Of a stretch of DNA of 64,000 nucleotides, positions 2,747 through 49,451 are shown one piece after another. Under the pieces are notes generated by a model. It was not told the DNA's origin, made no database searches, and saw only the letters and a list, made by a program, of their open reading frames with translations. Position 1 is the first letter of the stretch, and each line of letters begins with the position of its first letter. The DNA lies in assembly GCF_057098645.1 (NCBI RefSeq), contig NZ_CM169472.1. One strand, 5' to 3'. The position numbers and the translations under genes are program-made.

Positions 2747-4099
2747 ATGGCACTTGCAATGAAAGTAATCTCTCAAGTTGAAGCGCAGCGCAAGATTCTG
2801 GAAGAAGCAGTTTCCACTGCGCTGGAGTTGGCCTCAGGCAAATCGGACGGTGCGGAAGTTGCCGTCAGCAAGACCACCGGCATTAGCGTAAGCACGCGTT
2901 ATGGTGAAGTGGAGAATGTTGAATTCAATAGCGATGGCGCGCTGGGGATCACTGTTTATCACCAGAACCGCAAAGGTAGCGCATCATCCACCGATTTAAG
3001 CCCGCAGGCCATTGCCCGTACTGTACAGGCGGCGCTGGATATTGCCCGTTATACCTCGCCAGATCCCTGTGCCGGCGTGGCAGACAAAGAGCTGCTGGCC
3101 TTTGACGCACCAGATCTCGACTTGTTCCACCCTGCGGAAGTTTCCCCGGATGAAGCCATTGAACTGGCGGCCCGCGCAGAACAGGCGGCATTGCAGGCGG
3201 ACAAACGCATCACCAATACCGAAGGTGGCAGCTTTAACAGCCACTACGGTGTCAAAGTTTTTGGCAACAGCCACGGCATGTTGCAGGGTTACTGCTCAAC
3301 GCGTCATTCGCTCTCCAGCTGTGTAATTGCCGAAGAAAATGGCGATATGGAGCGTGATTACGCCTACACCATTGGGCGGGCGATGAGCGATCTGCAAACG
3401 CCAGAGTGGGTCGGGGCCGACTGTGCTCGCCGCACTTTATCGCGCCTGTCACCGCGAAAACTCTCCACCATGAAAGCGCCAGTGATTTTTGCTAATGAAG
3501 TGGCAACCGGGCTGTTCGGTCATCTGGTTGGCGCAATTGCAGGCGGTTCGGTTTACCGTAAATCTACCTTCCTGCTGGATTCGCTGGGTAAACAAATTCT
3601 GCCGGACTGGCTGACCATTGAAGAGCATCCGCATCTGCTGAAAGGGCTGGCGTCGACGCCATTCGACAGCGAAGGTGTGCGCACCGAGCGTCGCGATATT
3701 ATTAAAGATGGCATCCTGACTCAGTGGCTGCTGACCAGCTATTCGGCGCGAAAACTGGGGCTGAAAAGCACCGGACATGCGGGCGGTATTCACAACTGGC
3801 GGATTGCCGGACAAGGTCTAAGCTTCGAGCAGATGCTCAAAGAGATGGGCACCGGGCTGGTGGTGACGGAATTGATGGGCCAGGGCGTGAGTGCAATTAC
3901 CGGTGATTATTCCCGTGGTGCGGCGGGCTTCTGGGTAGAAAACGGCGAAATTCAGTATCCGGTTAGCGAAATCACCATCGCAGGTAATTTAAAAGATATG
4001 TGGCGCAATATTGTCACCGTCGGTAACGATATTGAAACACGCAGTAATATACAGTGTGGTTCTGTGCTGTTGCCGGAGATGAAAATCGCCGGACAGTAA
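2747..4099 (+). CDS. pmbA: metalloprotease PmbA/TldE
   Basis: 450-aa ORF, TldD/PmbA-like sequence, conserved synteny. Confidence 0.85.
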
Positions 4100-4279: not shown

Positions 4280-4669
<390 letters not shown>

Positions 4670-4794
4670 TTCCTTATTGGGCGGTGAAACGTTACCGCCC
4701 AACGCTTTCTTACCCCTCGTAAAATCACCGCCAAATCTCTCTTCACTACGGCATATTTCTGCGTGTCGACGCCATTTTTGCGAGGCGTTTTCCA

Positions 4795-4845
4795 GAAATG
4801 AATGTAATGCATATGTAATGCTATAATACATTACACTTTTCATAA
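4795..4845 (+). promoter_or_regulatory. putative promoter/operator with TGTAATG direct and inverted repeats upstream of the antitoxin-like ORF
   Basis: aatgtaatgcatatgtaatgctataatacattaca contains a -10 like tataat flanked by TGTAATG / CATTACA repeats. Confidence 0.3.
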
Positions 4846-4859
4846 TTACCGGAGGCATA

Positions 4860-5099
4860 ATGGCCACACTTAACGTCCGCCTGGATGACAAACTGAAAAA
4901 TGAGGCTTATGCGGTGCTGGAAAAATTAAATATCACGCCTACTGAAGCAGTGCGGCTGCTGTTTCAGTACGTTGCGGAAAATGGACGAATGCCGGTAAAA
5001 ACGCTCACTGTCAGTGATAGTGAAGAAGCCTTGTTACGCACTGTCAGGGAACGACTGGCCAACCCACAAGAGACCATTAAGGTCCGGCTGGATGAGTGA
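4860..5099 (+). CDS. RelB/DinJ-family antitoxin-like protein (no cognate toxin gene downstream)
   Basis: 79-aa ORF MATLNVRLDDKLKNEAYAVLEKLNITPTEAVRLLFQYVAENG... resembles the ribbon-helix-helix DinJ/RelB N-terminus. Confidence 0.55.
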   Translation: MATLNVRLDDKLKNEAYAVLEKLNITPTEAVRLLFQYVAENGRMPVKTLTVSDSEEALLRTVRERLANPQETIKVRLDE

Positions 5100-5564
5100 T
5101 TAACGCAAATGATGCACCACCTGATTGCTGCTGCCGCGCCAGATCAGGGAAGGGTCTTTTAAATCCTGCACAAATTTGCCGTCGACCAGCACGTTAATCA
5201 AATCAACAACCTGCATTTGCGCAGCGTTGAGTTCGTCGAGTTTATAGCCTGTCCACACCCAGATGTCTTTACCCGGACACTCGGCGCGGATGCGTTGTAC
5301 CAGTTTCAGAATATCCGGCACGTTTTGCGGATGCAGCGGGTCGCCGCCGGAGAGGGAAATACCCTGGCGTTTGATACGAGTGTCATTCAGATCGTTAATG
5401 ATCTGGTCTTCCATTGCTTTGGTAAATGGCTGACCGGAATTTACCCGCCAGGTGCTTTTGTTATAGCAACCGGGGCATTCATGAACACACCCGGAGACAA
5501 ACAGGGTGCAGCGAGTGCCGGGGCCGTTGACGATGTCGACAGGATAGTACTGATGATAATTCAT
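5100..5564 (-). CDS. nrdG: anaerobic ribonucleotide reductase activating protein (radical SAM)
   Basis: 154-aa ORF with radical SAM CxxxCxxC (CVHECPGC) motif; downstream of nrdD on same strand. Confidence 0.9.
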   Translation of the reverse strand: MNYHQYYPVDIVNGPGTRCTLFVSGCVHECPGCYNKSTWRVNSGQPFTKAMEDQIINDLNDTRIKRQGISLSGGDPLHPQNVPDILKLVQRIRAECPGKDIWVWTGYKLDELNAAQMQVVDLINVLVDGKFVQDLKDPSLIWRGSSNQVVHHLR

Positions 5565-5589
5565 TGTTTCGCCTGGCTTATCAGTCCGC

Positions 5590-5745
<156 letters not shown>

Positions 5746-5753
5746 AGTGCAGA

Positions 5754-7892
5754 TCAACCTATCTGCCCATTTCCCAAATGTTTAACGCGGCGCTTAACTT
5801 CTTCCTGCTTACCGGCGTTAAACGGACGTGCATCCGGGCTACCTAAATATCCGCACACGCGGCGAGTTACCGACACACGGGAGGCGTCATGGTTACCACA
5901 TTTCGGGCAAGTGAAGCCTTTGCTGGTGCACTCGAACTCACCGGTAAAGCCACACTCGTAGCACTCATCAATCGGTGTATTGGTGCCGTAATACGGTACA
6001 TGCTGATAGCTGTAATCCCAGACATCTTCCAGCGCCTTCAGGTTGTGCTGAATGTTTGGATACTCGCCGTAGCAAATGAAACCACCGTTCGCCAGCGGCG
6101 GGTAAGGCGCTTCAAAGTCGATCTTGTCGTACGGGTTCACCTTCTTCTCCACATCGAGGTGGAAACTGTTGGTGTAGTAACCTTTATCGGTCACGCCCGG
6201 CACCACGCCAAACTCAGCAGTATCGAGACGGCAGAAGCGATCGCACAGGTTTTCACTCGGCGTGCTGTAGAGACTGAAACCATAACCCGTTTCTTCTTTC
6301 CACTGATCCACTGCCTGACGCAGACGTTCAACAATGGCGATACCTTTCGCGCGAAGCTGCTCGTTGTCGTAAACATGCTCGCCGCCGAACAGCGCGTTAA
6401 TGGTTTCGTGGATGCCGATGTAACCCAGCGAAATAGACGCACGACCGTTTTTGAAGATTTCAGAAACATCATCGTCAGCATTCAGACGCACGCCACAAGC
6501 ACCTTCCATATAGAGGATCGGGGCCACGCGCGCTTTCACGCCTTCGAGACGAGCGATACGGGTCATCAGCGCCTTACGTGCCAGCACCAGACGTTCATCC
6601 AGCAGCTTCCAGAAGGTGGCTTCATCGCCTTTTGCTTCCAGAGCAATACGCGGCAGGTTCAGGCTGATCACGCCGAGGTTGTTACGACCATCGTGGATCT
6701 GCTCGCCGTTTTCATTTTCCCACACGCCGAGGAAGCTGCGGCAGCCCATCGGAGTTTTAAACGAACCGGTGACTTTCACTACCTGATCGTAGTTCAGGAT
6801 ATCCGGATACATGCGCTTGCTTGCGCACTCCAGCGCCAGCTGTTTGATGTCGTAGTTCGGATCGCCTTTTTTATGGTTCAGGCCATCGCGAATCGCAAAC
6901 ACCAGTTTCGGGAACACCGCAGTTTTACGGTTTTTACCGAGGCCTGCGATACGGTTACGCAGGATAGATTCCTGAATCAGGCGCGACTCCCAGCTGGTGC
7001 CCAGACCAAAACCAAAGGTTACAAACGGCGTCTGACCGTTGGCGGTGTGCAGGGTGTTTACTTCGTACTCCAGCGACTGGAAGGCATCGTAGCACTCTTT
7101 AATGGTACGAGAGTTAGCGTAGCCTTCGGCGTCCGGGATGTTCCACTCTTCTGCGGTCTTGCGATGTTTGTTGTAGCTGGCGGTGACAAACGGTGCCAGC
7201 ACTTCATCGATACGGTTAATGGTGGTGCCGCCATAAATATGGCTGGCGACCTGAGCAATAATCTGCGCAGTTACCGCGGTTGCCGTAGAGATCGACTTCG
7301 GCGGTTCAATCTCGGCGTTCCCCATCTTAAAGCCCTGGGTCAGCATGCCTTTCAGGTCGATCAACATGCAGTTGAACATCGGGAAGAACGGCGAGTAATC
7401 GAGATCGTGATAGTGAATATCGCCACGCTCATGTGCCTGCACCACGTCACGCGGCAGCAGGTGCTGACGTGCATAGTGTTTAGCCACGATCCCGGCCAGC
7501 AGGTCGCGCTGGGTTGGAATCACCTTGCTGTCTTTGTTGGCGTTTTCGTTGAGTAACGAGGCGTTGGTCTGCTCGACCAGACCACGGATCTCCTGGTTCA
7601 GGCGACCGCGTTTTTCACGTTCAATGTCGCGATCGTGACGGTACTCGATGTAAGCACGAGCCAGTTGTTTGTATGGACCTGACATCAGCTGGTTTTCAAC
7701 AGCGGTCTGGATCTCATTGATATCCACCTGGTTGCGGCCCTGCATCTGCTCGCTGACAACCGCAGCAACAGTGGCGCAATAATCTGCATCATCGACTTCC
7801 GCTGCTTTAGCTGCACGCAGAATCGCTTCTTTGATGCGCTCTGATTTAAACGGCACTTTGCAGCCGTCTCGTTTCATCACATGCGGTGTCAT
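5754..7892 (-). CDS. nrdD: anaerobic ribonucleoside-triphosphate reductase (class III)
   Basis: 712-aa ORF with C-terminal glycyl radical motif (RVCGYLG) and zinc-ribbon cysteines. Confidence 0.92.
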   Translation of the reverse strand: MTPHVMKRDGCKVPFKSERIKEAILRAAKAAEVDDADYCATVAAVVSEQMQGRNQVDINEIQTAVENQLMSGPYKQLARAYIEYRHDRDIEREKRGRLNQEIRGLVEQTNASLLNENANKDSKVIPTQRDLLAGIVAKHYARQHLLPRDVVQAHERGDIHYHDLDYSPFFPMFNCMLIDLKGMLTQGFKMGNAEIEPPKSISTATAVTAQIIAQVASHIYGGTTINRIDEVLAPFVTASYNKHRKTAEEWNIPDAEGYANSRTIKECYDAFQSLEYEVNTLHTANGQTPFVTFGFGLGTSWESRLIQESILRNRIAGLGKNRKTAVFPKLVFAIRDGLNHKKGDPNYDIKQLALECASKRMYPDILNYDQVVKVTGSFKTPMGCRSFLGVWENENGEQIHDGRNNLGVISLNLPRIALEAKGDEATFWKLLDERLVLARKALMTRIARLEGVKARVAPILYMEGACGVRLNADDDVSEIFKNGRASISLGYIGIHETINALFGGEHVYDNEQLRAKGIAIVERLRQAVDQWKEETGYGFSLYSTPSENLCDRFCRLDTAEFGVVPGVTDKGYYTNSFHLDVEKKVNPYDKIDFEAPYPPLANGGFICYGEYPNIQHNLKALEDVWDYSYQHVPYYGTNTPIDECYECGFTGEFECTSKGFTCPKCGNHDASRVSVTRRVCGYLGSPDARPFNAGKQEEVKRRVKHLGNGQIG

Positions 7893-18284: not shown

Positions 18285-19147
18285 GCTTAGTCAGCCGTTG
18301 TCTCCGGGTGTCGCGTGCGCAGTTGCACGTCATTCTCAGACGAACCGATGACTGGATGGATGGCCGCCGCAGTCGTCACACTGATGATACGGATGTGCTT
18401 CTCCGTATACACCATGTTATCGGAGAGCTGCCCACGTATGGTTATCGTCGGGTATGGGCGCTGCTTCGCAGACAGGCAGAACTTGATGGTATGCCTGCGA
18501 TCAATGCCAAACGTGTTTACCGGATCATGCGCCAGAATGCGCTGTTGCTTGAGCGAAAACCTGCTGTACCGCCATCGAAACGGGCACATACAGGCAGAGT
18601 GGCCGTGAAAGAAAGCAATCAGCGATGGTGCTCTGACGGGTTCGAGTTCTGCTGTGATAACGGAGAGAGACTGCGTGTCACGTTCGCGCTGGACTGCTGT
18701 GATCGTGAGGCACTGCACTGGGCGGTGACTACCGGCGGCTTCAACAGTGAAACAGTACAGGACGTCATGCTGGGAGCGGTGGAACGCCGCTTCGGCAACG
18801 ATCTTCCGTCGTCTCCAGTGGAGTGGCTGACGGATAATGGTTCATGCTACCGGGCTAATGAAACACGCCAGTTCGCCCGGATGTTGGGACTTGAACCGAA
18901 GAACACGGCGGTGCGGAGTCCGGAGAGTAACGGAATAGCAGAGAGCTTCGTGAAAACGATAAAGCGTGACTACATCAGTATCATGCCCAAACCAGACGGG
19001 TTAACGGCAGCAAAGAACCTTGCAGAGGCGTTCGAGCATTATAACGAATGGCATCCGCATAGTGCGCTGGGTTATCGCTCGCCACGGGAATATCTGCGGC
19101 AGCGGGCTTGTAATGGGTTAAGTGATAACAGATGTCTGGAAATATAG
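18242..19147 (+). CDS. insD: IS2 OrfB (InsD) DDE transposase catalytic subunit
   Basis: 301-aa ORF overlapping orfA in another frame, IS3-family arrangement. Confidence 0.85.
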
Positions 19148-19380
19148 GGGCAAATCCATTGATGCAATATTTTGTCAGCGCAAACGGTTTACTTGAATTA
19201 TAAGTCAAAATATATGCATTTTTATTTGATGTGATTCTGCAGGCGACTGTCGTTCGGTATCAATAATTGCAGACATTTCCTGCTTTTTTCTTTTTCACTT
19301 TCACGCAATCAGATATGCATTTTATTCCATTCATCCGACTTATAGGGCGGAGTGTGAAAACGAACGGCTAACACTATTGC

Positions 19381-19776
19381 TTACTGCTCAGGGATGCGCG
19401 CTATCACTTTAATTTCAAAATCAAAGCCTGCCAGCCATGTAACACCCACCGCCGTCCAGTTTGGATAAGGTGGGGTGCTAAATATTTCATTTTTCACCGT
19501 CATGATGTCTTCGAATTGTTTTTCTGGATCGGTATGAAAGCTCGTAATATCAATGATATTGTCAAAAGTGCATCCCGCAGCAGCCAGGGTCGCATGCAAA
19601 TTATCAAATGCCAGTCTGACTTGTTGCTGAAAATCGGGTTCTGGTGTTCCGTCCTCTCGACTTCCTACTTGCCCGGAAACAAACAGCAAATCGCCGGAAC
19701 GAATAGCCGCAGAATAACGATGCTCAGCATACAGTGAATGTCGTCCAGCAGGGAAAACAGCGGTTCTTTCTACCAT
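19381..19776 (-). CDS. yjgH: RidA/YjgF-family protein YjgH
   Basis: 131-aa ORF of the YjgF family in conserved position. Confidence 0.8.
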   Translation of the reverse strand: MVERTAVFPAGRHSLYAEHRYSAAIRSGDLLFVSGQVGSREDGTPEPDFQQQVRLAFDNLHATLAAAGCTFDNIIDITSFHTDPEKQFEDIMTVKNEIFSTPPYPNWTAVGVTWLAGFDFEIKVIARIPEQ

Positions 19777-19906
19777 TTGGTTATCCTCAAGATTTACGAC
19801 ATGAACAGAAGATTTATATTTATCAGGAGCCGCTTTTAGCGGACGACGTGAGTAAACAAAACCCAGACATCATGGATAATGGCTGGGCTTAATTGAGCGT
19901 AGTCGG

Positions 19907-20620
19907 TTATGCGCCAAACGCGCCATCAATGGTATGCATCGCGCCGGTAACAAAACTGGCTTCTGGCCCTGCTAACCATGCGACCATACCAGCGACCTCT
20001 TCCGGTTGCCCATGTCTTTTGATAGCCATAAAACTATGCAACATATCGCGCATTGGCCCGTTGGCGGGATTAGCGTCGGTATCAATTGGCCCTGGCTGGA
20101 CGACGTTGATGGTGATCCCACGCGGTCCGAAATCACGGGCCAGCCCGCGCGCCATGCCTTGCAGGGCAGATTTACTGGCGGCATAAGCAGCCATGCCTGC
20201 AACAGGCATACGATCGCCATTCACGGAGCCGATGATTAAGATGCGCCCGCCTTCGGGCATCTGCCGGGCGGCTTCAACAGAGGCATGGTAAGGAGCATGA
20301 ATATTGATTTTGAAAAGGCGATCAATATCGTCGGCATTTAATTCCAGGGCATCGCCAAAGACGCCAATACCTGCATTTACCACCAGGATATCCAATGCGC
20401 CGCTCTTACGAACGACATCAATGACAGCGTCTCTGTCAGCACTATCTGTGAATACTGCTGTCGCTCCCGTCTCTTGTGCCAGGCGTTCAGCGGCATCTTT
20501 CGACTCCGCATAGGTGAATCGTACATTGGCCCCATCGGTGACGAAACGACGTACGATAGCGGCACCGATTCCACGGCTACCACCGAGGATGAGAACTGTC
20601 TTACCTGTAAAAGCGCCCAT
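19907..20620 (-). CDS. bdcA: short-chain dehydrogenase/reductase, c-di-GMP binding biofilm dispersal mediator
   Basis: 237-aa SDR with TGxxxGxG (GGSRGIGAA) and YxxxK motifs. Confidence 0.85.
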   Translation of the reverse strand: MGAFTGKTVLILGGSRGIGAAIVRRFVTDGANVRFTYAESKDAAERLAQETGATAVFTDSADRDAVIDVVRKSGALDILVVNAGIGVFGDALELNADDIDRLFKINIHAPYHASVEAARQMPEGGRILIIGSVNGDRMPVAGMAAYAASKSALQGMARGLARDFGPRGITINVVQPGPIDTDANPANGPMRDMLHSFMAIKRHGQPEEVAGMVAWLAGPEASFVTGAMHTIDGAFGA

Positions 20621-20690
20621 AAGGACTCCTTGATTTATTATGTAACATGCATTACAAAACTGTTTTAACTTTCTGTCAACAAGTTTTGTA
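20621..20690. promoter_or_regulatory. divergent bdcA/bdcR promoter region with TTGTAA...TTACAA inverted repeats (candidate TetR-family operator)
   Basis: ttgtaacatgcattacaa and caacaagttttgtaatg palindromic elements between divergent genes. Confidence 0.35.
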
Positions 20691-21284
20691 ATGATCACTA
20701 AAAAACAATATCGCGTTCCAGGTCGTCCCAGACGTTTCGCTCCTGAGCAGGCAGTCTCTGCGGCAAAAGTGCTTTTTCACCAAAAAGGTTTCGATGCTGT
20801 CAGTGTTGCTGAAGTTACTGATTATCTTGGTATTAACCCCCCGAGCCTCTACGCGGCTTTTGGCAATAAGGCTGGGTTATTTAGCCGTGTACTCAATGAA
20901 TATGTCGGCACGGAAGCTATTCCGCTTGCCGATATTCTTCGTGATGATCGTCCGGTAGGGGAGTGCCTGGCTGAGGTATTAAAAGAAGCGGCGCGCAGAT
21001 ATAGCCAAAACGGCGGCTGCGCTGGCTGTATGGTTCTTGAAGGCATTCATAGTCATGATCCACAAGCGCGTGATATTGCCGTTCAATATTATCACGCCGC
21101 AGAAACGGCCATTTATGACTATATCGCCAGGCGGCATCCACAAAGCGCACAATGTGTGACTGATTTTATGAGTACCGTGATGTCAGGGCTTTCTGCGAAG
21201 GCACGGGAGGGGCACTCCATCGAACAACTCTGTGCAACAGCTGCACTGGCGGGGGAAGCGATAAAAACTATTCTCAAGGAGTGA
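20691..21284 (+). CDS. bdcR: TetR-family transcriptional regulator
   Basis: 197-aa ORF with N-terminal TetR HTH. Confidence 0.85.
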   Translation: MITKKQYRVPGRPRRFAPEQAVSAAKVLFHQKGFDAVSVAEVTDYLGINPPSLYAAFGNKAGLFSRVLNEYVGTEAIPLADILRDDRPVGECLAEVLKEAARRYSQNGGCAGCMVLEGIHSHDPQARDIAVQYYHAAETAIYDYIARRHPQSAQCVTDFMSTVMSGLSAKAREGHSIEQLCATAALAGEAIKTILKE

Positions 21285-21416
21285 TGCGGGCCTTGACCCG
21301 AAAGGCGGGAACGCGCCTGCCGATAAGTTGTGATAAGACAATAATTCACGCGTTAAGGCTAGCGGAATTGATCATCTTTTCGTATAACGATAGAAATGAA
21401 ACGTTGTTTTAATTAA

Positions 21417-21881
<465 letters not shown>

Positions 21882-22003
21882 TGACTTTTCGCCGTAAATA
21901 ACTCCAGGTTTACGGCGAGTTTGTGAAAAGAGCGTTTTTTGATATTTTTTTGTGAGTAAAATTTGTAATGCTTAGACGTTCTTATTAACTCAAGGAGTTC
22001 GTC

Positions 22004-36578: not shown

Positions 36579-36707
36579 GAGATTTCCTCCAGTTTCCTGC
36601 CTGGAGTATAGGCAACGGCTGCGCACTCTTCACCGCTAAATTCAGCAGATTGCGAGACGCCTTCCAAAGAGATTTAAGTGCCGGGCGACAGGCACCCGGC
36701 AAAGGGA

Positions 36708-37727
36708 TCAGAAGTCGGCTTTCAGGACCACTCGGTAGCGCGCTTTACCATCGCGTACATGCTGAATGGCGTCGTTAATTTTCGACATCGGGAACAGTTC
36801 GGTAGTCGGCACAACCTTGCTGCGGGCGGCAAAGCGCATCAGCTTACGCAACTCATAAGGTGTACCGGTAGCAGAGCCAGAGACACTGCGATCGCCCGCA
36901 ATCAGCGTAAAGGCCGGAACCGGCAACGGCGTGAGAACCGCACCGATTGTATGGAAATTACCGCCATAGGTCAGCGCCTCAAAATAAGGCTGCCAGTCGA
37001 GGCTGACGTTGACGGTGTTGATAATGAGATCAAACTGCCCCGCCAGTGCTTTCAGTGCCTGTGGATCGCGGCTATTCACCACTTTATCGGCACCCATCGC
37101 CAGTACTTCCTGCTCTTTCGCCGGATTAGAACTAAAGGCTGTCACCTCGCATCCCATTGCGTGCAGAAGTTTTATAGCGATATGCCCCAGCCCGCCAATA
37201 CCAATTACCCCAACGCGGCTGGTAGCAGTGATATGGTGCATCAACAGTGGTTTAAAGACCGTGATACCGCCGCACAACAGCGGCCCGGCGGACTCGATAT
37301 CAATATTTTCTGGCAGTGGAATCACCCATTGCCAGTCCGCACGCAACTTCTCGGCAAAGCCACCGCGATTCATAATCGTCGGCACCGCACCTTGCTCGCA
37401 GTTGATCTGATTACCGCTAATACAGGCATCGCAATGCCCGCAGCTGCGTGCCGTCCAGCCAATCCCGACACGCTGACCGACCTGCAAACCTTTATCCTGC
37501 GCGGCGCTCCCGAGCGCCACCACGCGACCAATCACCTCATGCCCGGCAACCAGCGGATATTGCGAAAATCCCCATTCGTTATCGATCATCGACAGATCGG
37601 AATGGCAGATCCCGCAGTAATCCACCTGCACTTCAACATCTTGTGGCTTCAGCTCACCGGGATCGTACTCATAAACTTCCAGTTCGCCGCCCGCTTCTTT
37701 TGCGGCATAGCTTTTTATCATCGACAT
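36708..37727 (-). CDS. ahr: NADPH-dependent aldehyde reductase (zinc alcohol dehydrogenase family)
   Basis: 339-aa MDR with zinc motif GHEVIG and Rossmann GIGGLGH. Confidence 0.9.
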
Positions 37728-37922
37728 TTTTTGGTCCTTCTCTGGTGTTGTCTGGGAAGTGTAGAGCATGGCAGGGCGGGGTGCCTGGAGTGTGACAAAG
37801 GTTACACATCGCTGAGTGTAATGCTGAAAATTTCAACACTTAGCGAGGTGCGAGCAAGCTGGCGCTTGCATGGTGGCGTGCGACAGGTATAATCCACAAC
37901 GTTTTCCGCATACCTCTTCAGT

Positions 37923-38007
37923 GCCGAAGTGGCGAAATCGGTAGACGCAGTTGATTCAAAATCAACCGTAGAAATACGTGCCGGTTCGAGTCCGGCCTTC
38001 GGCACCA
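37923..38007 (+). tRNA. leuX: tRNA-Leu (anticodon CAA)
   Basis: 85-nt sequence GCCGAAGTGGCGAAATCGGTAGACGCAGTTGATTCAAAATCAACCGTAGAAATACGTGCCGGTTCGAGTCCGGCCTTCGGCACCA with long variable arm. Confidence 0.95.
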
Positions 38008-38171
38008 TTATTACTTCCAAGTCCATCCGAGTAAGTCCGATTATCCATTAAAAATCAATACTTTCAGCGATTTCTACGATCTTGGATCGTCCGAGGTTGT
38101 CCGTTGAAATCCGGATGTCATTGGGGGCATAATTGGGGGCATCTTAACTTCGATTAGAAATGTGCCCCCAA

Positions 38172-39446
38172 ATGAAGCTCAATGCTAGACAAGTCGAGAC
38201 AGCAAAGCCAAAAGACAAAAGCTACAAAATGGCCGATGGCGGCGGTTTGTATCTCGAGGTTTCGGCCAAGGGGTCTAAATACTGGCGCATGAAATACCGA
38301 CGCCCCTCTGACAAAAAAGAGGATCGCCTCGCTTTTGGTGTTTGGCCGACCGTGACGCTTGCTGAAGCTAGAACGAGGAGGGATGAAGCGAAAAAGTTGC
38401 TGGCGCAAGGTATAGATCCAAAAGCAGTACAGAAAGAGGCTCAAGCAGAGAATGCTGGTGCTTATAATTTTGAAACTATTGCTCGTGAATGGCACGCCAG
38501 CAACAAACGTTGGAGTGAGGATCATCGGGCGCGTGTTCTTCGCTATCTAGAGCTGTATATCTTTCCTTATATTGGCTTGTCTGATATCCGACAGCTTAAA
38601 ACTAGCCATCTTTTAGCACCGATAAAAAAAGTTGATGCCAGTGGTAAGCATGATGTGGCGCAGCGTCTTCAGCAACGTGTTACTGCTATTATGCGCTATG
38701 CCGTACAGAACGATTATATAGATTCAAATCCTGCAAGTGATATGGCTGGTGCGTTATCGACAGCTAAAACGCGGCACTATCCAGCTCTACCATCACATCG
38801 TTTTCCTGAGTTCTTAGCACGTCTTGCTGCATATCGTGGTCGTATGATGACGAAAATTGCGGTTGAACTTTCTTTATTAACATTTGTTCGTTCCAGTGAG
38901 CTACGTTTCGCTCGCTGGGATGAATTCGACTTCGATAAATCTCTATGGCGTATACCTGCAAAACGCGAGGAAATTAAAGGCGTACGTTACTCATATAGAG
39001 GAATGAAGATGAAGGAAGAGCATCTCGTTCCACTTAGTAGGCAAGCGATAGGGTTGTTGGAGCAGTTAAAGCAGATTAGTGGTGATAAGACGCTGCTTTT
39101 CCCTGGGGATCATGACGCAACTAAGGTTATGAGTGAGAACACTGTTAATAATGCATTGCGTGCGATGGGCTATGATACGAAAACAGAAGTTTGCGGACAT
39201 GGTTTTAGGACAATGGCACGTGGTGCGTTAGGAGAGTCAGGATTATGGAGTGATGATGCTATTGAACGCCAATTGAGCCATTCGGAACGTAATAATGTGC
39301 GAGCTGCGTATATTCATACGTCTGAGCATTTAGATGAGCGCAGACTAATGGTCCAATGGTGGGCAGATTATCTTTATTCCAACAGAGAGAAGCATATCTC
39401 TGCTTTTGAATTTGCAAATAAACTTAATAAAAATAGCCTTGATTAA
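38172..39446 (+). CDS. intB: P4-type tyrosine integrase
   Basis: N-terminus MKLNARQVETAKPKDKSYKMADGGGLYLEV... typical of P4-family integrases, directly downstream of tRNA-Leu. Confidence 0.9.
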   Translation: MKLNARQVETAKPKDKSYKMADGGGLYLEVSAKGSKYWRMKYRRPSDKKEDRLAFGVWPTVTLAEARTRRDEAKKLLAQGIDPKAVQKEAQAENAGAYNFETIAREWHASNKRWSEDHRARVLRYLELYIFPYIGLSDIRQLKTSHLLAPIKKVDASGKHDVAQRLQQRVTAIMRYAVQNDYIDSNPASDMAGALSTAKTRHYPALPSHRFPEFLARLAAYRGRMMTKIAVELSLLTFVRSSELRFARWDEFDFDKSLWRIPAKREEIKGVRYSYRGMKMKEEHLVPLSRQAIGLLEQLKQISGDKTLLFPGDHDATKVMSENTVNNALRAMGYDTKTEVCGHGFRTMARGALGESGLWSDDAIERQLSHSERNNVRAAYIHTSEHLDERRLMVQWWADYLYSNREKHISAFEFANKLNKNSLD

Positions 39447-39613
39447 GTCTCCGCTTAGTTTGAACTAGCCTTCATCAACAGCAATGCTTGTGTCTTTTTA
39501 ACCTTCACTTAACAACTTCTTAGGCAATTATTCCATTGCTTTTAAAAACTAAGTATTCCTTAGTAATTTCGAGTGTAAAAAGTGCAAACCTACCTCCAAA
39601 AAGAGGATTTTCG

Positions 39614-39817
39614 ATGCTTCCAATTAGGTTAAAAAAAGCCCGATTGAATGCTGGGTTAACTCAAGAACAGTTGGGAATACTTGTTGGCATTGATGAATGC
39701 TCTGCCAGTGCTCGCATGAATCAATATGAGAAAGGTAAACATATGCCCGATTTTTCACTTACTAAAAAAATCGCTGATTTATTAAATGTCCCTGTCTCAT
39801 ATTTTTACACACCCTAA
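39614..39817 (+). CDS. XRE-family HTH protein, candidate restriction-modification controller (C protein)
   Basis: 67-aa ORF LKKARLNAGLTQEQLGILVGIDECSASARMNQYEKG..., SD aagagga upstream; precedes a putative R gene. Confidence 0.55.
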   Translation: MLPIRLKKARLNAGLTQEQLGILVGIDECSASARMNQYEKGKHMPDFSLTKKIADLLNVPVSYFYTP

Positions 39818-39911
39818 GATGACTTGGCAGAAATTATTTTGTTGATTAATAAACTAGACAAAAAACAGCGGTTAATTTTATTAAAAAATTTATCAGATGG
39901 ATTTATAAGTC

Positions 39912-40730
39912 ATGAATAAGCAAGAAGTTATACTTAAAGTGCAGGAGTGTGCTGCGTGGTGGATTTTGGAGAGACAAAGTAAACTAACAAAGTTAATGTC
40001 AGAAACAATGTCCATAAATCCGTTTATGACCCCTTTTATTTTTGATTATCATTCCCTTAATGATTTTGATGAACTAGTTGAAGCAATAATTGCTAAGCAT
40101 TTAATGACTGGGCATGATACTGGCTTTGGAAAATTGATTGATGAAAAAATACTTCCTAGAGTGTTTGGTGCATATAAATTAGATAAAAGTTATAGAGCTG
40201 CCAACGAGCCTTTTATACACCCTTGCTTTGATGAAATAGATCATGTAATACAAAGGGATGATGGTAGAATTGAGCTTTTATCTCTTAAGGCAGGGAAATG
40301 GACTATTCAATTGACGATGGCTGTCCAACTAAATAAAGCATTTCACGAAATCATAAATAATTATCCTGGAGTGGCTGACAATATAGTGGTTGGGGTTTTT
40401 TATGGAAATAGCCATGGATTAACTGATAAGTATAGAATCTTACGAGGTATCAATACTGGTGCAAACCACAATGTGATTGATATTCGTGACAAAGTGCATG
40501 TATATGCTGGTAAAGAATTTTGGTCATGGCTTAACAATGGTGAGGCTGAAACCCAGCATTGGGTACTTGAAGGTATAGAACGTGCTGTAAAAGAAGCAGA
40601 TATAAAAGAAAAAAATAAAGATCTTATTGAAAAATTCAAAGAACATGTTGCAAAGAAGTACAATGAGCAAGTTCTAAATGCTGATGGCACAGCTCAATGG
40701 CACAAATTACTTGAAATGATTAATGAATAA
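39912..40730 (+). CDS. uncharacterised protein, candidate type II restriction endonuclease (by context)
   Basis: 272-aa AT-rich ORF convergent with a C5-MTase and preceded by a C-protein-like HTH; possible PD-(D/E)xK-like segment DEIDHVIQRDDGRIELLSLK. Confidence 0.4.
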   Translation: MNKQEVILKVQECAAWWILERQSKLTKLMSETMSINPFMTPFIFDYHSLNDFDELVEAIIAKHLMTGHDTGFGKLIDEKILPRVFGAYKLDKSYRAANEPFIHPCFDEIDHVIQRDDGRIELLSLKAGKWTIQLTMAVQLNKAFHEIINNYPGVADNIVVGVFYGNSHGLTDKYRILRGINTGANHNVIDIRDKVHVYAGKEFWSWLNNGEAETQHWVLEGIERAVKEADIKEKNKDLIEKFKEHVAKKYNEQVLNADGTAQWHKLLEMINE

Positions 40731-40767
40731 AAAACTGGCCTAAGGGCCAGTTTTTTTATGACTAATT

Positions 40768-42021
40768 CTAAACTTCTTCTTCAAGGTCGTAGTAAGAAAC
40801 ATCTCCACTATATGCTTGACCATTTTTAAAGAAAGATCTGGTTCTAATATGCGGTCTAATATGGGTTTCTATATAATCTGGAGTTACTAAATCAGCAACC
40901 TTATTTTCTTGTATACGATGAAGAAGTTCCATAGCAGCTTCCCCTGCAACTTTACCTAACCGGACAGGAACTGCGTTACCTATCTGTCTGAATTTTTCTG
41001 TAGTTGTACCTTCAAATTTCCAGTAATCAGGAAACTCTTGTATCGCGGCAGCTTCACCAACAGAAATAGCTCTAAGTTCAGTTGGGTGGCACATACTTGT
41101 TCCCGCATGATTTGGCATTGTTACTACTGTGGGTGAAGGAAACTGGAAAGATAGTTTCCTCCAGTAAGCACTTCTTCCTCCTTTAAGATACCAGCTTTTT
41201 CCCATAGATTCTTTTTGCATTTCTTCTGGCATGCTTCTCCAGTTTCCGCCAGGTGGAACCATTGAAAGATATTTCAGTTTTCTTGGCGAAAAATTCATGA
41301 CTTCTGGATATTTATCAACAAAACCGCTCTCTGGGCCAATTACATCCCCCAGCGTTTTGAATGGCGGAAGATTATCTTCTACTCTATTGCTGAATAAAGG
41401 GGAGGCGAAATTGGCTATCATTCCGAAGCGATTACCAATTAAAATAACACGCTCCCTAATTTGTGGGGCTCCATAGTTGGCAGCATTAACTACAAAGCAA
41501 TCCACATGATAACCTAGTTTATTGAATTCGTTAGCTACCCTTTTTATTAGAGAGCCTTTTTCGAAAGCAGATGCTGCGATTGTGCCTGATAGCTCCTTCT
41601 TTTTAGAAGCTGGAACTATAGACATTGATAATAAACCGCGTACGTTTTCCATTACGAAAACTTTTGGGTTTAATTCTTTAATCATTCGAACGTATTCGAA
41701 AATAAGCTGCCCTCTGGCATCTTCTAGCCCTAACCTATTTCCAAAAACACTAAATGCTTGGCACGGTGGACCGCCAGCAACTAAATCTATTTCTTCTTTA
41801 TCATTCACTCCGGCTAGTGCTAATAATTCAGAGCCAGTGCAGTCAACAATACTACCTTCGAATACAGCAAGATTTGGCTTATTAGTTTTAATTGTTTTTA
41901 GAGCTGCCTTATCTTGTTCAACGCAAGCTACGAGCTCAAAGCCAGCCTCTTCGAGACCTAAGTCTAACCCCATTGCGCCACTAAATAGCGAAATAAACTT
42001 TTTACTAGACAAAATAATCAC
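40768..42021 (-). CDS. DNA (cytosine-5)-methyltransferase
   Basis: 417-aa ORF with motif I FSGAMG, motif IV GGPPCQAFS, motif VI ENV. Confidence 0.85.
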   Translation of the reverse strand: MIILSSKKFISLFSGAMGLDLGLEEAGFELVACVEQDKAALKTIKTNKPNLAVFEGSIVDCTGSELLALAGVNDKEEIDLVAGGPPCQAFSVFGNRLGLEDARGQLIFEYVRMIKELNPKVFVMENVRGLLSMSIVPASKKKELSGTIAASAFEKGSLIKRVANEFNKLGYHVDCFVVNAANYGAPQIRERVILIGNRFGMIANFASPLFSNRVEDNLPPFKTLGDVIGPESGFVDKYPEVMNFSPRKLKYLSMVPPGGNWRSMPEEMQKESMGKSWYLKGGRSAYWRKLSFQFPSPTVVTMPNHAGTSMCHPTELRAISVGEAAAIQEFPDYWKFEGTTTEKFRQIGNAVPVRLGKVAGEAAMELLHRIQENKVADLVTPDYIETHIRPHIRTRSFFKNGQAYSGDVSYYDLEEEV

Positions 42022-42337
42022 CTACATACTTAGCAGCCAAATACTAGGATATTGTAAAGGATTAACACTAATCCTCAACTCAAGTTTCAGGGATCTTAGC
42101 AGAATCTGCTTTGCAAGGATTCTATGAATGTAAATTAATAGATACTGGCGCGCAGTGCTTTCCCCGCCTCGCCCGCCCGCTTTGCAGGGCGGTTTTAATG
42201 CAGTTGCACAGTCACGCTCAGGCTGCGCCGGGAATGGCGCGGTCTGCAGAGAATGAGGCAGGAAAACGCATGCAAAGCCATGCACCTTATCGATGCATGG
42301 CTTTTTTCAGTAAAAACGGGAGGATTTTCGGGGAATT

Positions 42338-42910
42338 TTACACAGACTGACGTGATGCCAGTTGCGCACTTTTACGCGAAAAAATCATGTTCTGCGCAGG
42401 GGTGAATTTTTCACGGCTGTCATCCACCGAAGCCGCGTCAGGCCTGAATCCGATGGTCGTTAAAATGTCGCTATCCTGTGCGGAATAATTAATTTTTTCA
42501 CCCTTCGCAAGCCAGGACAGGAGGGCTTCACGCAGGGCATCTGTGGCACGCTGTATGGCACAGTTTCGGGCAATGGCCGTCAGCTCACTGTAGCCCATCA
42601 GCTCCGGTGCCAGTGCCGCCGCCAGTGCTGTGCCGTGCTGCTGCATAAAATCATTCAGCCGATCGCGGATGCTGATGTGCTGAACGGCTTCATGCGAACG
42701 AATATAACGACCGGCGGCCTGATTCACCTGCCATTTTCTGACTTCGATAATATTGCGTAATTCGTCCAGGCGACTGACGTTTCTGCCTTCTCCTGACAGA
42801 AGCCGCAGATATTCCTGTTCGGCCGCAGCCAGCTCATTTTTGCGTTGCAGCCATGCTGCTTTGTTATTCTGACAGGTGTCAAAGGCCTGCTGTAAGGCTG
42901 TGCTTTCCAT
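42338..42910 (-). CDS. psu: P4-like polarity suppression protein Psu
   Basis: 190-aa ORF at the end of the sid-delta-psu operon, length and position as in P4. Confidence 0.7.
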   Translation of the reverse strand: MESTALQQAFDTCQNNKAAWLQRKNELAAAEQEYLRLLSGEGRNVSRLDELRNIIEVRKWQVNQAAGRYIRSHEAVQHISIRDRLNDFMQQHGTALAAALAPELMGYSELTAIARNCAIQRATDALREALLSWLAKGEKINYSAQDSDILTTIGFRPDAASVDDSREKFTPAQNMIFSRKSAQLASRQSV

Positions 42911-42983
42911 CGTTATCTCTTTCTCATCATGCTGAAGAATAAAAATACGGTGTGCGGCGACGGCCGGGGTTAACCGGCAGCCC

Positions 42984-43484
42984 TCATTCCAGACGCAGCG
43001 AATATGATTGTGTTTTTAACCGTACTGGCGGCAGTTCCTGTTTTTCATGCAGGCTTTCTGCCAGTTCGTCCGGCGTGACCGGGCGGACAATGAAGCGGTT
43101 GATGGTCTGAAGCGTTTTAAACACCAGACCACAGCCCGGATCCGTGCACACATAAAAACGCTCGGTGACTTCCTGAGACAGACGCCGCGATGTTCTTGAC
43201 AGCGCAAGGCCTTTACATCTCCGACAACAATATCCGGTAACAAGCATTCTTTTCGGGCGCTTCATGCTACCGGAGGCTGACGTCAGTGAATCGCGGTATC
43301 TCTGTTTGCCTGAAATGTATTCCATTCCTGAATCTTTACAGTCAGAGAAAAAGCTTTCACTCGCTTCAAATGTCGCAGAGCAATAAATATTCCGGCACTG
43401 TGCAATCATTATCTTGGTGCCATCGTCCATGAAATGTGCGCGACGGGTGTGAGCAACATGTCCACACGACGGGCAGTAAATCAT
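42984..43484 (-). CDS. delta: P4-like Delta late-gene activator (tandem Ogr-type zinc finger)
   Basis: 166-aa ORF with two CxxC...CxxxxC zinc-finger units (CPSCGH...CRNIYC and CCRRC...CTDPGC). Confidence 0.8.
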   Translation of the reverse strand: MIYCPSCGHVAHTRRAHFMDDGTKIMIAQCRNIYCSATFEASESFFSDCKDSGMEYISGKQRYRDSLTSASGSMKRPKRMLVTGYCCRRCKGLALSRTSRRLSQEVTERFYVCTDPGCGLVFKTLQTINRFIVRPVTPDELAESLHEKQELPPVRLKTQSYSLRLE

Positions 43485-44215
43485 GACAGCAGTCCTCTGG
43501 CCTTAAGCACTGCTCCCTGCTGGTCTATTTTGTCCTGCCACACCTTGCGCTGTGCCGGTGTGCCTGCCACCTCATAATCCATGTGCGGGAGTGTTGCCGC
43601 TGACAGTCCGGTCAGCCGGAGAACCGGCTCGCCGGTGAGGCTGATTTGCATCTGTTTTATTTTCTGTTCCAGCGATGATTTCACCTGCTGCATGACAGCT
43701 TTATCGGGTGCGACGTAGCCCTGATGCCCGGTGGTGTTGGCGAGCGGATTTTCCTGTACCAGAATGCTCAGATGCATTGCCCGGACAAGCGCCTCACAGG
43801 TTTCATTCAGGGCGTGTTCCAGCTCATGCTCTGCATACAGACTCAGAAGGTGATGATGTGCCTTCCGGTAGGCGGTGGCCGTGCTGTCACACGCCCCTTT
43901 CAGGCGTTCACGTTCGAAATTCAGCACCACGGCCAGATTGTCATATTCCTGTACCAGCTCCCGGCGTGCCACGCGCTCAATGTGGCGCTGTTTCAGCTCG
44001 TCGCTCAGGACACCACCGGCTGCACGAAAGGCCGTGCGCCAGTCGTCAGCGTCGTTTCCGTCGGCCTGCGCCAGCGCATTTTTTTCCTGCTCTGCCCGTT
44101 CAATGGCCGTGACGGTCTCATCCATCAGTCGGGCGTTCTCAAGGTGGGCGGCTCTGGCCTTTTCCAGTTGTGCCAGTGCGGGTTGCAGATATTCAGGGAT
44201 GGTGTTGTCAGACAT
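43481..44215 (-). CDS. sid: P4-like Sid capsid size determination protein
   Basis: About 244-aa coiled-coil ORF upstream of delta; start assumed at MSDNTIPEYL. Confidence 0.7.
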   Translation of the reverse strand: MSDNTIPEYLQPALAQLEKARAAHLENARLMDETVTAIERAEQEKNALAQADGNDADDWRTAFRAAGGVLSDELKQRHIERVARRELVQEYDNLAVVLNFERERLKGACDSTATAYRKAHHHLLSLYAEHELEHALNETCEALVRAMHLSILVQENPLANTTGHQGYVAPDKAVMQQVKSSLEQKIKQMQISLTGEPVLRLTGLSAATLPHMDYEVAGTPAQRKVWQDKIDQQGAVLKARGLLS

Positions 44216-44287
44216 TTTCCGGCTCCTCGTCACTTCAGGTTAAGAAAATTGTGACGTACACCGGACAACAACACGACGCATTGCAGA

Positions 44288-44305
44288 TGTGCCAGCCCTG
44301 ACACA
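44288..44305 (-). promoter_or_regulatory. TGT-N12-ACA dyad, candidate Ogr/Delta activator site of the sid late promoter
   Basis: tgtgccagccctgacaca about 70-90 bp upstream of the sid start, matching the P2/P4 late promoter activator-site pattern. Confidence 0.45.
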
Positions 44306-44384
44306 GGAGACTCATCCTCAGACCGGCAAGCCAGGAAAAGGTCGCAGGAAAAACCGGCTTACTGTTTGTTTTTTTATATTTTAC

Positions 44385-44478
44385 TGTTCACCTCTGTTCA
44401 CCATAAGAAAAAAGATAAGTAATACAGTAAGTTAAATGGTGAACAATCGCAGTAATGACTGTTCACCGTCTGTTCACC
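44385..44478. repeat. P4 ori-like cluster of TGTTCACC iterons (alpha-binding type I repeats)
   Basis: Five TGTTCACC/GGTGAACA octamers within 95 bp. Confidence 0.6.
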
Positions 44479-44804
44479 CGTTGATGGACTTTTTGTGCTG
44501 TTTACTACTGTTTATTTTTATTAATTCACTGAAATAAATAAGAAAAAACAATTTGTATTTCACTATAATTTTTTCCAGCTCCTTCCAGAGCGTTTTAAAG
44601 CTATCTGGCGCTGATATACAAAAAATGCACAGCCATTGTAAGGCTGCCGGAACAAATCCCCCCTGTTGCGTCTGCCAAAAATATTCACAAAATAAAGCGC
44701 TACCCGAAGCCGGACGGACTTATCCGGTGCTGTATGGACATTAACGAGGTAGCCCGATGCAAGCTGTTTTTTCTTCCCCGTCTCCCGCCCCTGTGACGCC
44801 ACTG

Positions 44805-45023
44805 ATGCCGCTGCCGGACATCACGCAGGAGCGTTTTTTACGTCTGCCGGAAGTGATGCACCTGTGCGGCCTGTCACGCTCGACCATCTATGAACTCATC
44901 CGTAAGGGGGAATTTCCGCCGCAGGTGAGTCTTGGCGGTAAAAATGTGGCCTGGCTGCACTCTGAAGTCACCGCATGGATGGCCGGACGCATTGCCGGAC
45001 GCAAACGGGGGTACGACGCATGA
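44805..45023 (+). CDS. AlpA/Vis-family phage transcriptional regulator
   Basis: [51 protein letters not shown] matches AlpA-type HTH. Confidence 0.75.
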
Positions 45024-45412
45024 TAGTGCCCGCTCTGCAAAAACTCCCTTTTTCTGGCTTGCCTTTTTCCGGCATTTGCGGATATAGTTTTTCCGCTGCC
45101 GCAAAATCGGCAGCCGGGCGTGAGAACCCGTGTAGCTCGAAGGCGACATATGACGCGCCATGCGTCTTTTTTTGTGTCGCAATCAACGCCACAGAGCGCC
45201 AGATTATGGTGTGGCGTGTGGTTTGCCGTGCAGGTATGATCCTGTTCGCAATCGCATGTTATGCCACTGAGTCAATGGTAGCTCAGGCGGGGCAGCCTCC
45301 GGGCTGGCCGGTATTCTTCGAGGCCGGTATTCTCACCCCCGTCTGGGCTATCGCCATCGAGCGTGAGAACTCCGGCGATAGCAGTTATTTGCTACTCGAA
45401 GGAGGCTGCCTT

Positions 45413-45610
45413 ATGGCTACAACCCTTACCCCCTCACACCCTGAATTTGTCTTTGTGTTTGCGGCTGTCCGTCGCGCAGACCGTCATCCCCGTATCTGCA
45501 TGCTTCGCACCGTCGCCGGTGATGAACGCAGCGCCCGCCGTTCCCTTGTCCGTGACTATGTGCTCTCCCTTGCTGCCCGTCTGCCGGTGGTGGAGGTGTC
45601 CCGTGCGTAA
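45413..45610 (+). CDS. small hypothetical protein of the P4-like early region
   Basis: 65-codon ORF with strong SD ggagg 8 nt upstream; the longer listed ORF 44975..45610 is rejected. Confidence 0.35.
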
Positions 45611-45915
45611 TAAAAGCCCCTCAGACCGTCTCAGCGCGTCATGACGCCCGTGAACACCTCAGCATTGAGGCTTACCATAAGCTCAACCGCGCCAGCGCCG
45701 TATCCCGGTTTGTTGCAAAATGGCATCTGAATCGATCGCAGTTTGGCATTCGAATCGATCATGATTTGGCATCCATCTCCGATCACAGTTTGGCATCACA
45801 ATCGATCACGATTTGGCATGCTTCCGATCATTGATTGGCATCCTGCCAGTCACTCCGGGAATTAACTCTTTTCACCACAGTCTCCATTGCCGTGTTTAAA
45901 CCAGTGGAGACGTCA

Positions 45916-47481: not shown

Positions 47482-47497
47482 CAGAAGGAACAACAGT

Positions 47498-48253: not shown

Positions 48254-48525
48254 AAAGCGGTAGAAAAAGTTAAGTTCCCGGTTGATCGAATGGATGCGAA
48301 TCGCTGATCGGACTTCGATGCCAATCCGTGATCGAATAGAGCGGAATACGCAGTTTGTTGGGGGTGATTTGATTCACCGTGAACTCTCCGGCCTGCATCA
48401 GCTCTACATTCCGCATATTTTCAGTTACCTGAATGAAGATATTGATTTTGTGCTGAATGAACTGAAAGCCAAAGGCCTGTGCCGCGATTTTCTCGCCCAG
48501 CAGAAAGACCGGGGAGACAGGACGC

Positions 48526-48981: not shown

Positions 48982-49116
48982 TTAAAAAACGACACCCGAA
49001 AAATTAAATGTGCGTATTCGCGCAGGGATACGCACGTCTTCAGGAGACGCAGATATGCCTTATCAGTTAATGCAACCGGCACGGAATGCAGTCATCTGTC
49101 ACAGGGAGGAAAACAA

Positions 49117-49437: not shown

Positions 49438-49451
49438 AGGAGAACAACACC

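Follow-up and report, generated by a model that had tools for sequence, protein, structure and literature searches.

The window, by which we mean the whole 64,000-nucleotide stretch of DNA that was analysed, carries between cybC and nrdG a small rightwards-transcribed open reading frame that runs from an ATG at position 4860 to a TGA at 5097–5099 (+ strand) and encodes a protein of 79 residues. The gene order is yjgA (–), pmbA (+; 2747–4099), cybC (+; 4283–4669), the open reading frame (+), nrdG (–; 5100–5564), nrdD (–; 5754–7892) and treC, and these surroundings are ordinary E. coli core DNA; 3 kb of the window is 100% identical to 24 complete O145:H28-type genomes, such as RM9872 and RM13514. 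A Shine-Dalgarno sequence, GGAGG, can be read at 4851–4855 (+), 4 nt 5' of the ATG. RefSeq lists the product of this RelB-family antitoxin gene (4860–5099, +) as WP_000212717.1 with the label RelB/DinJ family antitoxin, and it corresponds to the commonest protein of loci that carry the antitoxin without a toxin (hereafter solo loci) plus the change A72T. Three protein forms of the antitoxin are each present on at least 1,000 public contigs.

The antitoxin TGA directly adjoins the complement of the nrdG stop codon (5100–5102), and the TAA stop of this convergent neighbour touches that of the antitoxin. The preliminary description of this DNA had the antitoxin stop abutting nrdG on the opposite strand with no room for a toxin gene, and both points hold, as the stops touch and no nearby open reading frame has a Pfam match. 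A toxin in an unusual position, upstream or antisense, was considered and rejected, because the four small open reading frames within 4646–5077 lack Pfam matches; the Pfam search of all other reading frames in 4646–5099 covered both strands and gave none. An RNA antitoxin or other RNA element was also rejected, as Rfam gives no family match inside the antitoxin gene and only REP-derived naRNA4 matches at 5584–5738, outside it. To the left, a cybC terminator hairpin (4677–4702, +) lies just inside the left end of a segment of approximately 430 bp that is missing from K-12-type genomes.

By its sequence the 79-residue product is a member of the RelB/DinJ family, with a predicted ribbon-helix-helix (RHH) domain and a predicted C-terminal toxin-binding segment made up of helix alpha3, loop L4 and the terminal strand, in agreement with its first description as an RHH antitoxin-like protein. 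All of the family profiles score above their curated cut-offs, which argues against membership of a non-antitoxin family: Pfam RelB PF04221 (E 1.9e-15, 57 bits against a cut-off of 22.4, residues 1–74), the NCBIfam equivalog NF008412 for RelB/DinJ antitoxins (128.2 bits against 96, residues 1–79) and TIGR02384 RelB_DinJ (73.7 bits against 45.65, residues 1–79). Along its whole length the protein shares 47% of its residues with K-12 RelB, and it matches the RelB structure 4FXE (E 3.9e-20, with the alignment reaching residue 79) and the RelB RHH domain 2K29 (E 3.2e-13, residues 1–48); with this degree of identity to a solved structure we regard the fold as settled. The K-12 RelB residues needed for operator binding are R7, I8, D9, K13, S28, R32 and L33 (Overgaard et al., PMC2812701), and among the predicted DNA-contact residues R7, D9, K13, R32 and L33 are identical here, with the substitutions I8L and S28T.

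The putative promoter and operator-like region (4799–4836, +) contains repeats, an extended -10 element and an inverted repeat copy. As was first noted, TGTAATG occurs here in direct and inverted orientation, and the three copies are located at 4803–4809 (+), 4814–4820 (+) and 4829–4835 (–, reading CATTACA on the + strand). The direct copies are part of a 9 nt sequence, ATGTAATGC, at 4802–4810 and 4813–4821, 11 bp apart, a phasing that would set them on one face of the helix. An inverted TGTAATG pair flanks a perfect TATAAT at 4822–4827, which forms part of an extended -10, TGcTATAAT (4819–4827). Our promoter assignment is based on this extended -10, read by hand from the sequence; a sigma-70 promoter scan makes no call, since it requires at least four of six matches in the -35 hexamer and the best -35 (ATGAAT, 18-bp spacer) matches at three. 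A cluster of three TGTAATG copies within 40 bp did not arise once when the 64-kb window was simulated 2,000 times with a first-order Markov model. The heptamer is also over-represented in the window as a whole (17 copies against 8.8 expected, with no shuffle reaching 17), although it is clustered and phased only at the antitoxin's own promoter and the other copies are single. K-12 RelB dimers bind hexads [A/T]TGT[A/C]A that overlap the promoter, and the antitoxin repeats have a TGTAA core in common with this K-12 relO hexad (PMC2812701). The base preceding the inverted copy (4828) is A in the window and G in every other allele examined.

Comparison of this locus across strains, proposed with the first description, shows what the window lacks. 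Using the 441-bp stretch from the cybC stop to nrdG as a query against 5,426 complete E. coli genomes, we find the antitoxin between cybC and nrdG in 454 (~8%), always on the chromosome, and the reading frame is therefore a conserved one. In most of these the match ends 15 bp before the end of the query, and the annotation places a RelE-family toxin gene next. Strain 7/2, for example, has an 80-residue antitoxin, the final 11 bp of whose gene are overlapped by the gene for a 96-residue toxin (WP_001105433), and the toxin stop abuts nrdG; the toxin is 65% identical to K-12 RelE and passes the TIGR02385 RelE/StbE profile. DNA of the toxin gene is present in 394 of the 5,426 genomes searched, in every case at the nrdG site and with no copy on a plasmid, and the antitoxin lies directly against nrdG in about 59 genomes among the matches listed, including all 24 of the O145 type, a number that fits the difference between 454 and 394. 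The co-located toxin gene is thus absent from the window and present at the orthologous locus in 394 other genomes, and the window holds the remnant of a type II toxin-antitoxin module, not a complete one. That the gene might be the remnant of a deleted pair was one of the possibilities raised at the outset, and it is the one that the comparison of the 454 genomes bears out.

K-12-type genomes have neither gene, with 35 bp between cybC and nrdG. The nrdG stop codon is TGA in these genomes and TAA in those with the module, so that the module's right-hand boundary falls at the final nrdG codon. Contigs with antitoxin variants named for E. fergusonii and E. marmotae have the module in the same position between cybC and nrdG, and the module therefore appears to be old in the genus; it also appears to decay repeatedly, usually losing the toxin first.

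We searched for a partner toxin elsewhere with a chimeric query made of 3 kb of the window, the reverse-complemented toxin gene and K-12 relBE (blastn, distant mode), which ranks the O145 records first and reveals any extra copies by the number of matching places. All 24 O145-type chromosomes gave one matching place, with neither a second toxin copy nor a K-12-type relBE at the DNA level (at least ~65–70% identity). When both toxins were used as tblastn queries, neither the 64-kb window nor the 87-kb plasmid pO145-13514 yielded a RelE homologue; vapBC is the only toxin-antitoxin pair annotated on that plasmid. The absence of a toxin partner, claimed from the locus alone in the preliminary description, thus extends to the 24 chromosomes searched by blastn and to the window and plasmid searched by tblastn.

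Alignment of solo and intact loci reveals a single gap of 283 columns bounded by an 11-bp repeat, CG(A/G)CTGGATGA, which is present at the 3' ends of both the antitoxin and the toxin genes, 283 bp apart. The antitoxin copy is CGACTGGATGA (...K V R L D E L stop) and the toxin copy is CGGCTGGATGA (...T K R L D E stop); both encode Arg-Leu-Asp-Glu, a C-terminal sequence common to the two proteins, and in the intact strain GF4-3 the copies match at all 11 positions. The window retains one CG(A/G)CTGGATGA copy at the deletion junction (5085–5095, +). A repeat search of intact loci identifies a further copy of the 11-bp repeat, the first in the gene, as CGCCTGGATGA at 4878–4888 (+) in codons 7–10 (RLDD), and the segment 4870–4888 is a 19-nt near-repeat of the gene's own 3' end (5077–5095). 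Because the toxin frame is +1 relative to that of the antitoxin and 283 is 3×94+1, the antitoxin frame is joined to the toxin's final GAG-TGA. The solo product is the ancestral antitoxin minus Leu80 only. K-12 RelB without residues 70–79 keeps both RelE neutralisation and repression (PMC12301738), so that removal of a single residue from the end should be of no consequence. The promoter, the operator-like repeats and the ribosome-binding site are untouched. In the O145:H28 lineage, then, one clean deletion of 283 bp between 11-bp direct repeats took out the toxin gene, probably through replication slippage or short-homology recombination. Slippage during replication and RecA-independent recombination are classical ways in which E. 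coli loses DNA between short direct repeats, and the lacI deletions of Albertini and Miller and the work of Lovett are said to be examples of such short-repeat deletions.

The deletion probably arose more than once, as judged from the sequences around the junction. We compared 17 loci (12 solo and five intact), and the basis for this conclusion is a table of their variable sites near the junction; neighbour-joining trees of the 1.4-kb and 1.15-kb flanks are distorted by REP-element indels, which make the alignment longer than the sequences. The junction is identical in all 12 solo loci, including those of Escherichia sp. E1V33 and SCPM-O-B-8794, two Escherichia genomes that serve as separate species representatives. 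This same junction is found on at least three flanking haplotypes, each of which is also known in the intact form: solo Z142-6 is nearly identical to intact 7/2 on both sides of the junction, solo O145 is nearly identical to intact GF4-3, and solo E600003 and 2013C-4282 have right-flank variants in common with intact KOr019. In the 400 bp to the left of the junction many sites distinguish the 7/2-like from the GF4-3-like background, and on the right a differing site lies only 11 bp away. Solo alleles vary in the junction base (CGA or CGG), and so do even E600003 and 2013C-4282, which are closely related. If the deletion had a single origin, recombination would have had to break within the 11 bp on the right, and at least two or three independent deletions are therefore the more economical account; that a single deletion spread by short-patch recombination is nonetheless conceivable.

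The toxin has also been lost by other routes. In an O158:H23 strain IS100 lies within the toxin gene, and in strain E69 the toxin is frameshifted to 86 residues; the antitoxin is intact in both. Contigs with the E. marmotae-named antitoxin variant, and one with the E. fergusonii-named variant, have an A8 to A7 frameshift such that the toxin ends after 26 codons, and at these loci the 80-residue antitoxin, the promoter and the repeats are intact. SCPM-O-B-7615 has the same A8 to A7 frameshift and is also missing the 5' half of the antitoxin. Loss of the toxin first would be the expected order, because losing the antitoxin while the toxin persists would be harmful.

We therefore interpret the gene in the window as the antitoxin half of a chromosomal relBE-type module that lost its toxin by a repeat-mediated deletion, probably a recurrent one, and that is now likely a harmless remnant (a probability of roughly 85%). 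The orphan is probably still made, to judge from its sequence, and by analogy with K-12 RelB its RHH dimer would be expected to contact the TGTAA-core repeats that overlap the gene's own -10. Without RelE, RelB has a lower affinity for its operator than the RelB-RelE complex does (PMC2812701, PMC12301738), and RelE increases the operator affinity and cooperativity of RelB more than 10-fold (PMC2812701); with the RelE co-repressor gone, the orphan would autorepress only weakly. Lon degrades K-12 RelB (PMC2812701), and by homology we assume that it would turn over the orphan too. With no cognate toxin in the genome the protein would have no partner to neutralise, and at most it might incidentally shield the cell if the same RelE, or one very like it, were to enter again. 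Most likely it is now a harmless leftover of toxin-first loss, the one order in which such a pair can safely decay.

That the remnant is neutral is the least secure step in this account, and the pattern of variation bears on whether anything more is involved. The solo reading frame is intact in every genome seen, and 10 of the 12 solo loci encode an identical protein. Mean pairwise divergence among 16 loci is 1.06% for the antitoxin, 3.7% for cybC and 2.6% for nrdG; relative to the E. marmotae-named variant loci it is 2.1% for the antitoxin against 7.0% for cybC, 8.4% for nrdG and ~7% for the toxin, with synonymous codon changes in 3–4 of 80 antitoxin codons, 24 of 129 in cybC and 35 of 155 in nrdG. 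The antitoxin gene and its promoter are thus markedly less diverged than all of their surroundings, which could reflect continuing selection, short-patch recombination, or chance in a 240-bp gene. The promoter/operator region is invariant in all five intact alleles, whereas three solo lineages have lesions in it: AF3 lacks one repeat owing to an 11-bp deletion, WP8-S18 has TATAAT changed to TAGAAT together with E55D and D78N, and O145 has the G to A change beside the inverted repeat together with A72T. These promoter and operator lesions and amino acid changes look like relaxed constraint, with numbers too small for statistics.

The strongest alternative, which we nevertheless consider unlikely, is that selection maintains the orphan as an anti-addiction or immunity factor against RelE-type toxins of plasmids or phages, which would allow the host to shed such elements unharmed or to withstand a phage RelE, a role listed among those proposed for orphan antitoxins in reviews (PMC7354431, PMC10790755) and raised in the preliminary description. 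Potential targets exist: RelE homologues are found in 3,937 plasmid records, 1,678 of them from Escherichia, with identities of ~64–67% and none above 67%; E. coli phage PhiR42_1 carries a RelE that is 65% identical, and one Salmonella record in the phage collection has a RelE homologue with up to 69% identity. The intactness and near-invariance of the solo reading frame across lineages and its unusually low synonymous divergence are also in keeping with selective retention. However, close matches on mobile elements are lacking: plasmid antitoxins are no more than ~55% identical, with three exceptions (one of 98% in an E. coli record of 4.9 Mb, and two of 80% in Klebsiella, of which one is in a record of 5.4 Mb and the other on a plasmid of 550 kb), and neutralisation of, or cross-talk with, non-cognate partners is reported to be rare (PMC12301738, PMC7354431). 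The three lesion-bearing solo lineages also argue against a retained function, and the solo-specific changes found (A72T, E55D and D78N) all fall in two of them; moreover, a gene of 240 bp can stay intact for a long time without selection.

An extended form of this proposal would have the triplicated CGNCTGGATGA repeat acting as a hotspot that repeatedly ejects the toxin in frame, with the orphan RelB then selected as immunity against plasmid or phage RelE. Selective retention of the orphan would explain both the near-invariant protein and its low synonymous divergence, and if the whole scheme were true the locus would be a natural case of an addiction module turning repeatedly into an anti-addiction gene, but we hold the combination to be decidedly doubtful.

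It is very improbable that the antitoxin has been co-opted to control the transcription of other genes through TGTAATG-type sites elsewhere in the genome. Orphan antitoxins have been proposed as regulators (PMC10790755), and the over-representation of TGTAATG in the window could be taken as a sign of dispersed sites, but the confinement, within the window, of clustered, phased copies to the gene's own promoter and the weaker operator binding of RelB without RelE both speak against it. Chances are slimmer again for a split toxin-antitoxin system, with the cognate toxin elsewhere in the O145:H28 genome: such systems are known in other species (PMC10790755), but the chimeric query found its single place on the O145-type chromosomes, the tblastn searches of the window and pO145-13514 were negative, and among the 5,426 genomes the toxin DNA is confined to the nrdG site. 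Finally, the notion of a stand-alone RHH gene that never had a toxin, with the toxin-bearing loci derived from it, fits the wide distribution of the solo form, which extends to divergent Escherichia, but is contradicted by the junction anatomy and barely credible, since the last complete codon (GAG) and the stop of the solo allele belong to the toxin gene, one copy remains at the junction of the repeat that intact loci carry twice, the solo alleles fall within intact haplotype groups, and the antitoxin-toxin order with its start/stop overlap is the canonical relBE layout of K-12.

The interpretation of the gene as a toxin-less remnant of a relBE-type module invites comparison with known systems, of which the closest is K-12 RelB-RelE (Qin prophage relBE; 4FXE, 2K29). 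The two resemble each other in their protein families, the 79-residue length of the antitoxin, the gene order with overlapping stop and start codons, the level of identity (47% for the antitoxin and 65% for the toxin), the RHH DNA-contact residues and a TGTAA-core repeat operator over the -10, which is predicted here. Unlike K-12 relBE, the gene in the window is a separate paralogue at the cybC–nrdG position and not part of a prophage, and its toxin gene is deleted; the K-12 relBE copy is itself absent from the O145-type chromosomes in the DNA-level search. The repeat layouts also differ, with two direct copies 11 bp apart and one inverted copy flanking the -10 in the window, and two abutting 12-bp palindromic half-sites in K-12. 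DinJ-YafQ is similar in belonging to the TIGR02384 subfamily and in having an RHH antitoxin whose C-terminus wraps a RelE-fold toxin, but the window protein scores as a RelB equivalog and DinJ is much more distant; DinJ and RelB are ~25% identical, and DinJ needs its last nine residues whereas RelB tolerates their loss (PMC12301738).

Orphan antitoxins are abundant in E. coli according to a survey of 950 genomes (PMC10790755), and in the Klebsiella pneumoniae complex they are mostly degraded from formerly intact pairs, as recounted in a review (PMC7354431). The gene in the window resembles the orphans of these sources in being an antitoxin gene with no adjacent toxin, and differs in that its decay is resolved to the base pair and is seen on several haplotypes. 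The same review cites the chromosomal CcdA of Erwinia chrysanthemi as an anti-addiction module against the CcdB of the F plasmid (PMC7354431), which is a parallel in so far as a chromosomal antitoxin could in principle neutralise a related mobile toxin; in that example, however, the pair is intact and cross-neutralisation is demonstrated, whereas the window has neither a toxin nor a close mobile counterpart. Among the papers searched we found no description of the cybC–nrdG module or of its repeat-mediated toxin loss. The element is of a known kind and already annotated, and the base-pair detail is a small addition that introduces no new kind of system.

The RefSeq label 'type II toxin-antitoxin system antitoxin' should accordingly not be equated with a working toxin-antitoxin system in O145:H28. 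Although of modest importance, the locus provides a base-pair-resolved example of the decay of a chromosomal toxin-antitoxin module in which the toxin goes first and the antitoxin survives, and in which a short-repeat deletion appears to have recurred beside the frameshift and IS routes taken in sister lineages. It could also serve as a natural test case for whether orphan antitoxins are leftovers or give protection from the toxins of plasmids and phages.

The toxin gene of the antitoxin–toxin module located between cybC and nrdG has been inactivated independently in other lineages (L014, L015, L023 and L025–L027 among the compared loci), mostly with retention of the antitoxin gene. In L025–L027, contigs whose antitoxins are the variants named after E. 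marmotae and E. fergusonii, the toxin is frameshifted by shortening of an A8 run to A7, strain E69 has a frameshift giving an 86-aa truncated product, and an O158:H23 strain has an IS100 insertion in the toxin gene. In SCPM-O-B-7615 the toxin is frameshifted and the 5’ half of the antitoxin gene is also gone.

The antitoxin gene contains an internal 19-nt near-repeat (window 4870–4888 and 5077–5095), with 17 of the 19 positions identical in intact loci, that encodes LNVRLDD at the N-terminus of the protein and IKVRLDE at its C-terminus. Because the gene repeats its own segment in this way, the intact module contains three copies of the CGNCTGGATGA motif; the sole deletion observed among these is between copies 2 and 3, which lie at the 3’ ends of the antitoxin and toxin genes respectively.

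Comparison of window 4670–5102 with K-12 (L016) shows that cybC and nrdG are separated by only 35 bp in K-12-type genomes, and that the terminator hairpin there differs from that in the window. The nrdG stop codon is TGA in K-12-type genomes and TAA in the window, which places the module's right-hand edge inside the last codons of nrdG. Neither a target duplication nor mobile-element ends are visible in this comparison, and insertion and deletion of the module are thus indistinguishable. The adjacent cybC gene (cytochrome b562; window 4283–4669) is intact and encodes 128 aa; the K-12 MG1655 copy is annotated as a pseudogene. On the other side, the nrdG–nrdD intergenic region contains two REP-type palindromic elements (window 5584–5738), one of which scores 60.3 bits as naRNA4, where the Rfam gathering threshold is 59.5. 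The intergenic region is highly variable among strains and distorted alignments of the flank.

Two plasmid-collection records that match the module are of chromosome size, NZ_CP134663.1 (4.9 Mb) and CP125156.1 (5.4 Mb). The first of these, from E. coli, is presumably a mislabelled chromosome with the usual module next to nrdG. In Klebsiella pneumoniae, a homologue whose antitoxin is 80% identical is present on CP125156.1 and on a 550-kb plasmid.

Elsewhere in the window, seven of the 17 copies of TGTAATG lie within ~3.6 kb (19109–22727), around bdcA, tabA, a 555-aa hypothetical gene (20668–22335) and argF, a grouping that probably reflects just AT-rich sequence. In the region from 36588 to 50000 and beyond, a tRNA-Leu gene (36588–36672) is followed downstream by an apparent defence island, which includes two large hypothetical genes, a restriction endonuclease that binds phosphorothioated DNA (40021–40893), type II Zorya zorE/zorB2/zorA2 (41433–44906), an STY4851/ECs_5259 family protein (45118–48477) and a DEAD/DEAH helicase.

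The antitoxin gene and its promoter (window 4799–5099) are far less diverged than their neighbours, synonymous sites included, both in comparison with L024–L027 and among 16 E. coli loci. Mean pairwise divergence among the 16 is 1.06% for the antitoxin gene, compared with 3.7% for cybC and 2.6% for nrdG, and relative to the loci with the E. marmotae-named variant there are synonymous changes in 3–4 of 80 antitoxin codons against 24 of 129 for cybC and 35 of 155 for nrdG. The low divergence of the antitoxin gene and promoter may reflect selection, short-patch recombination or chance.
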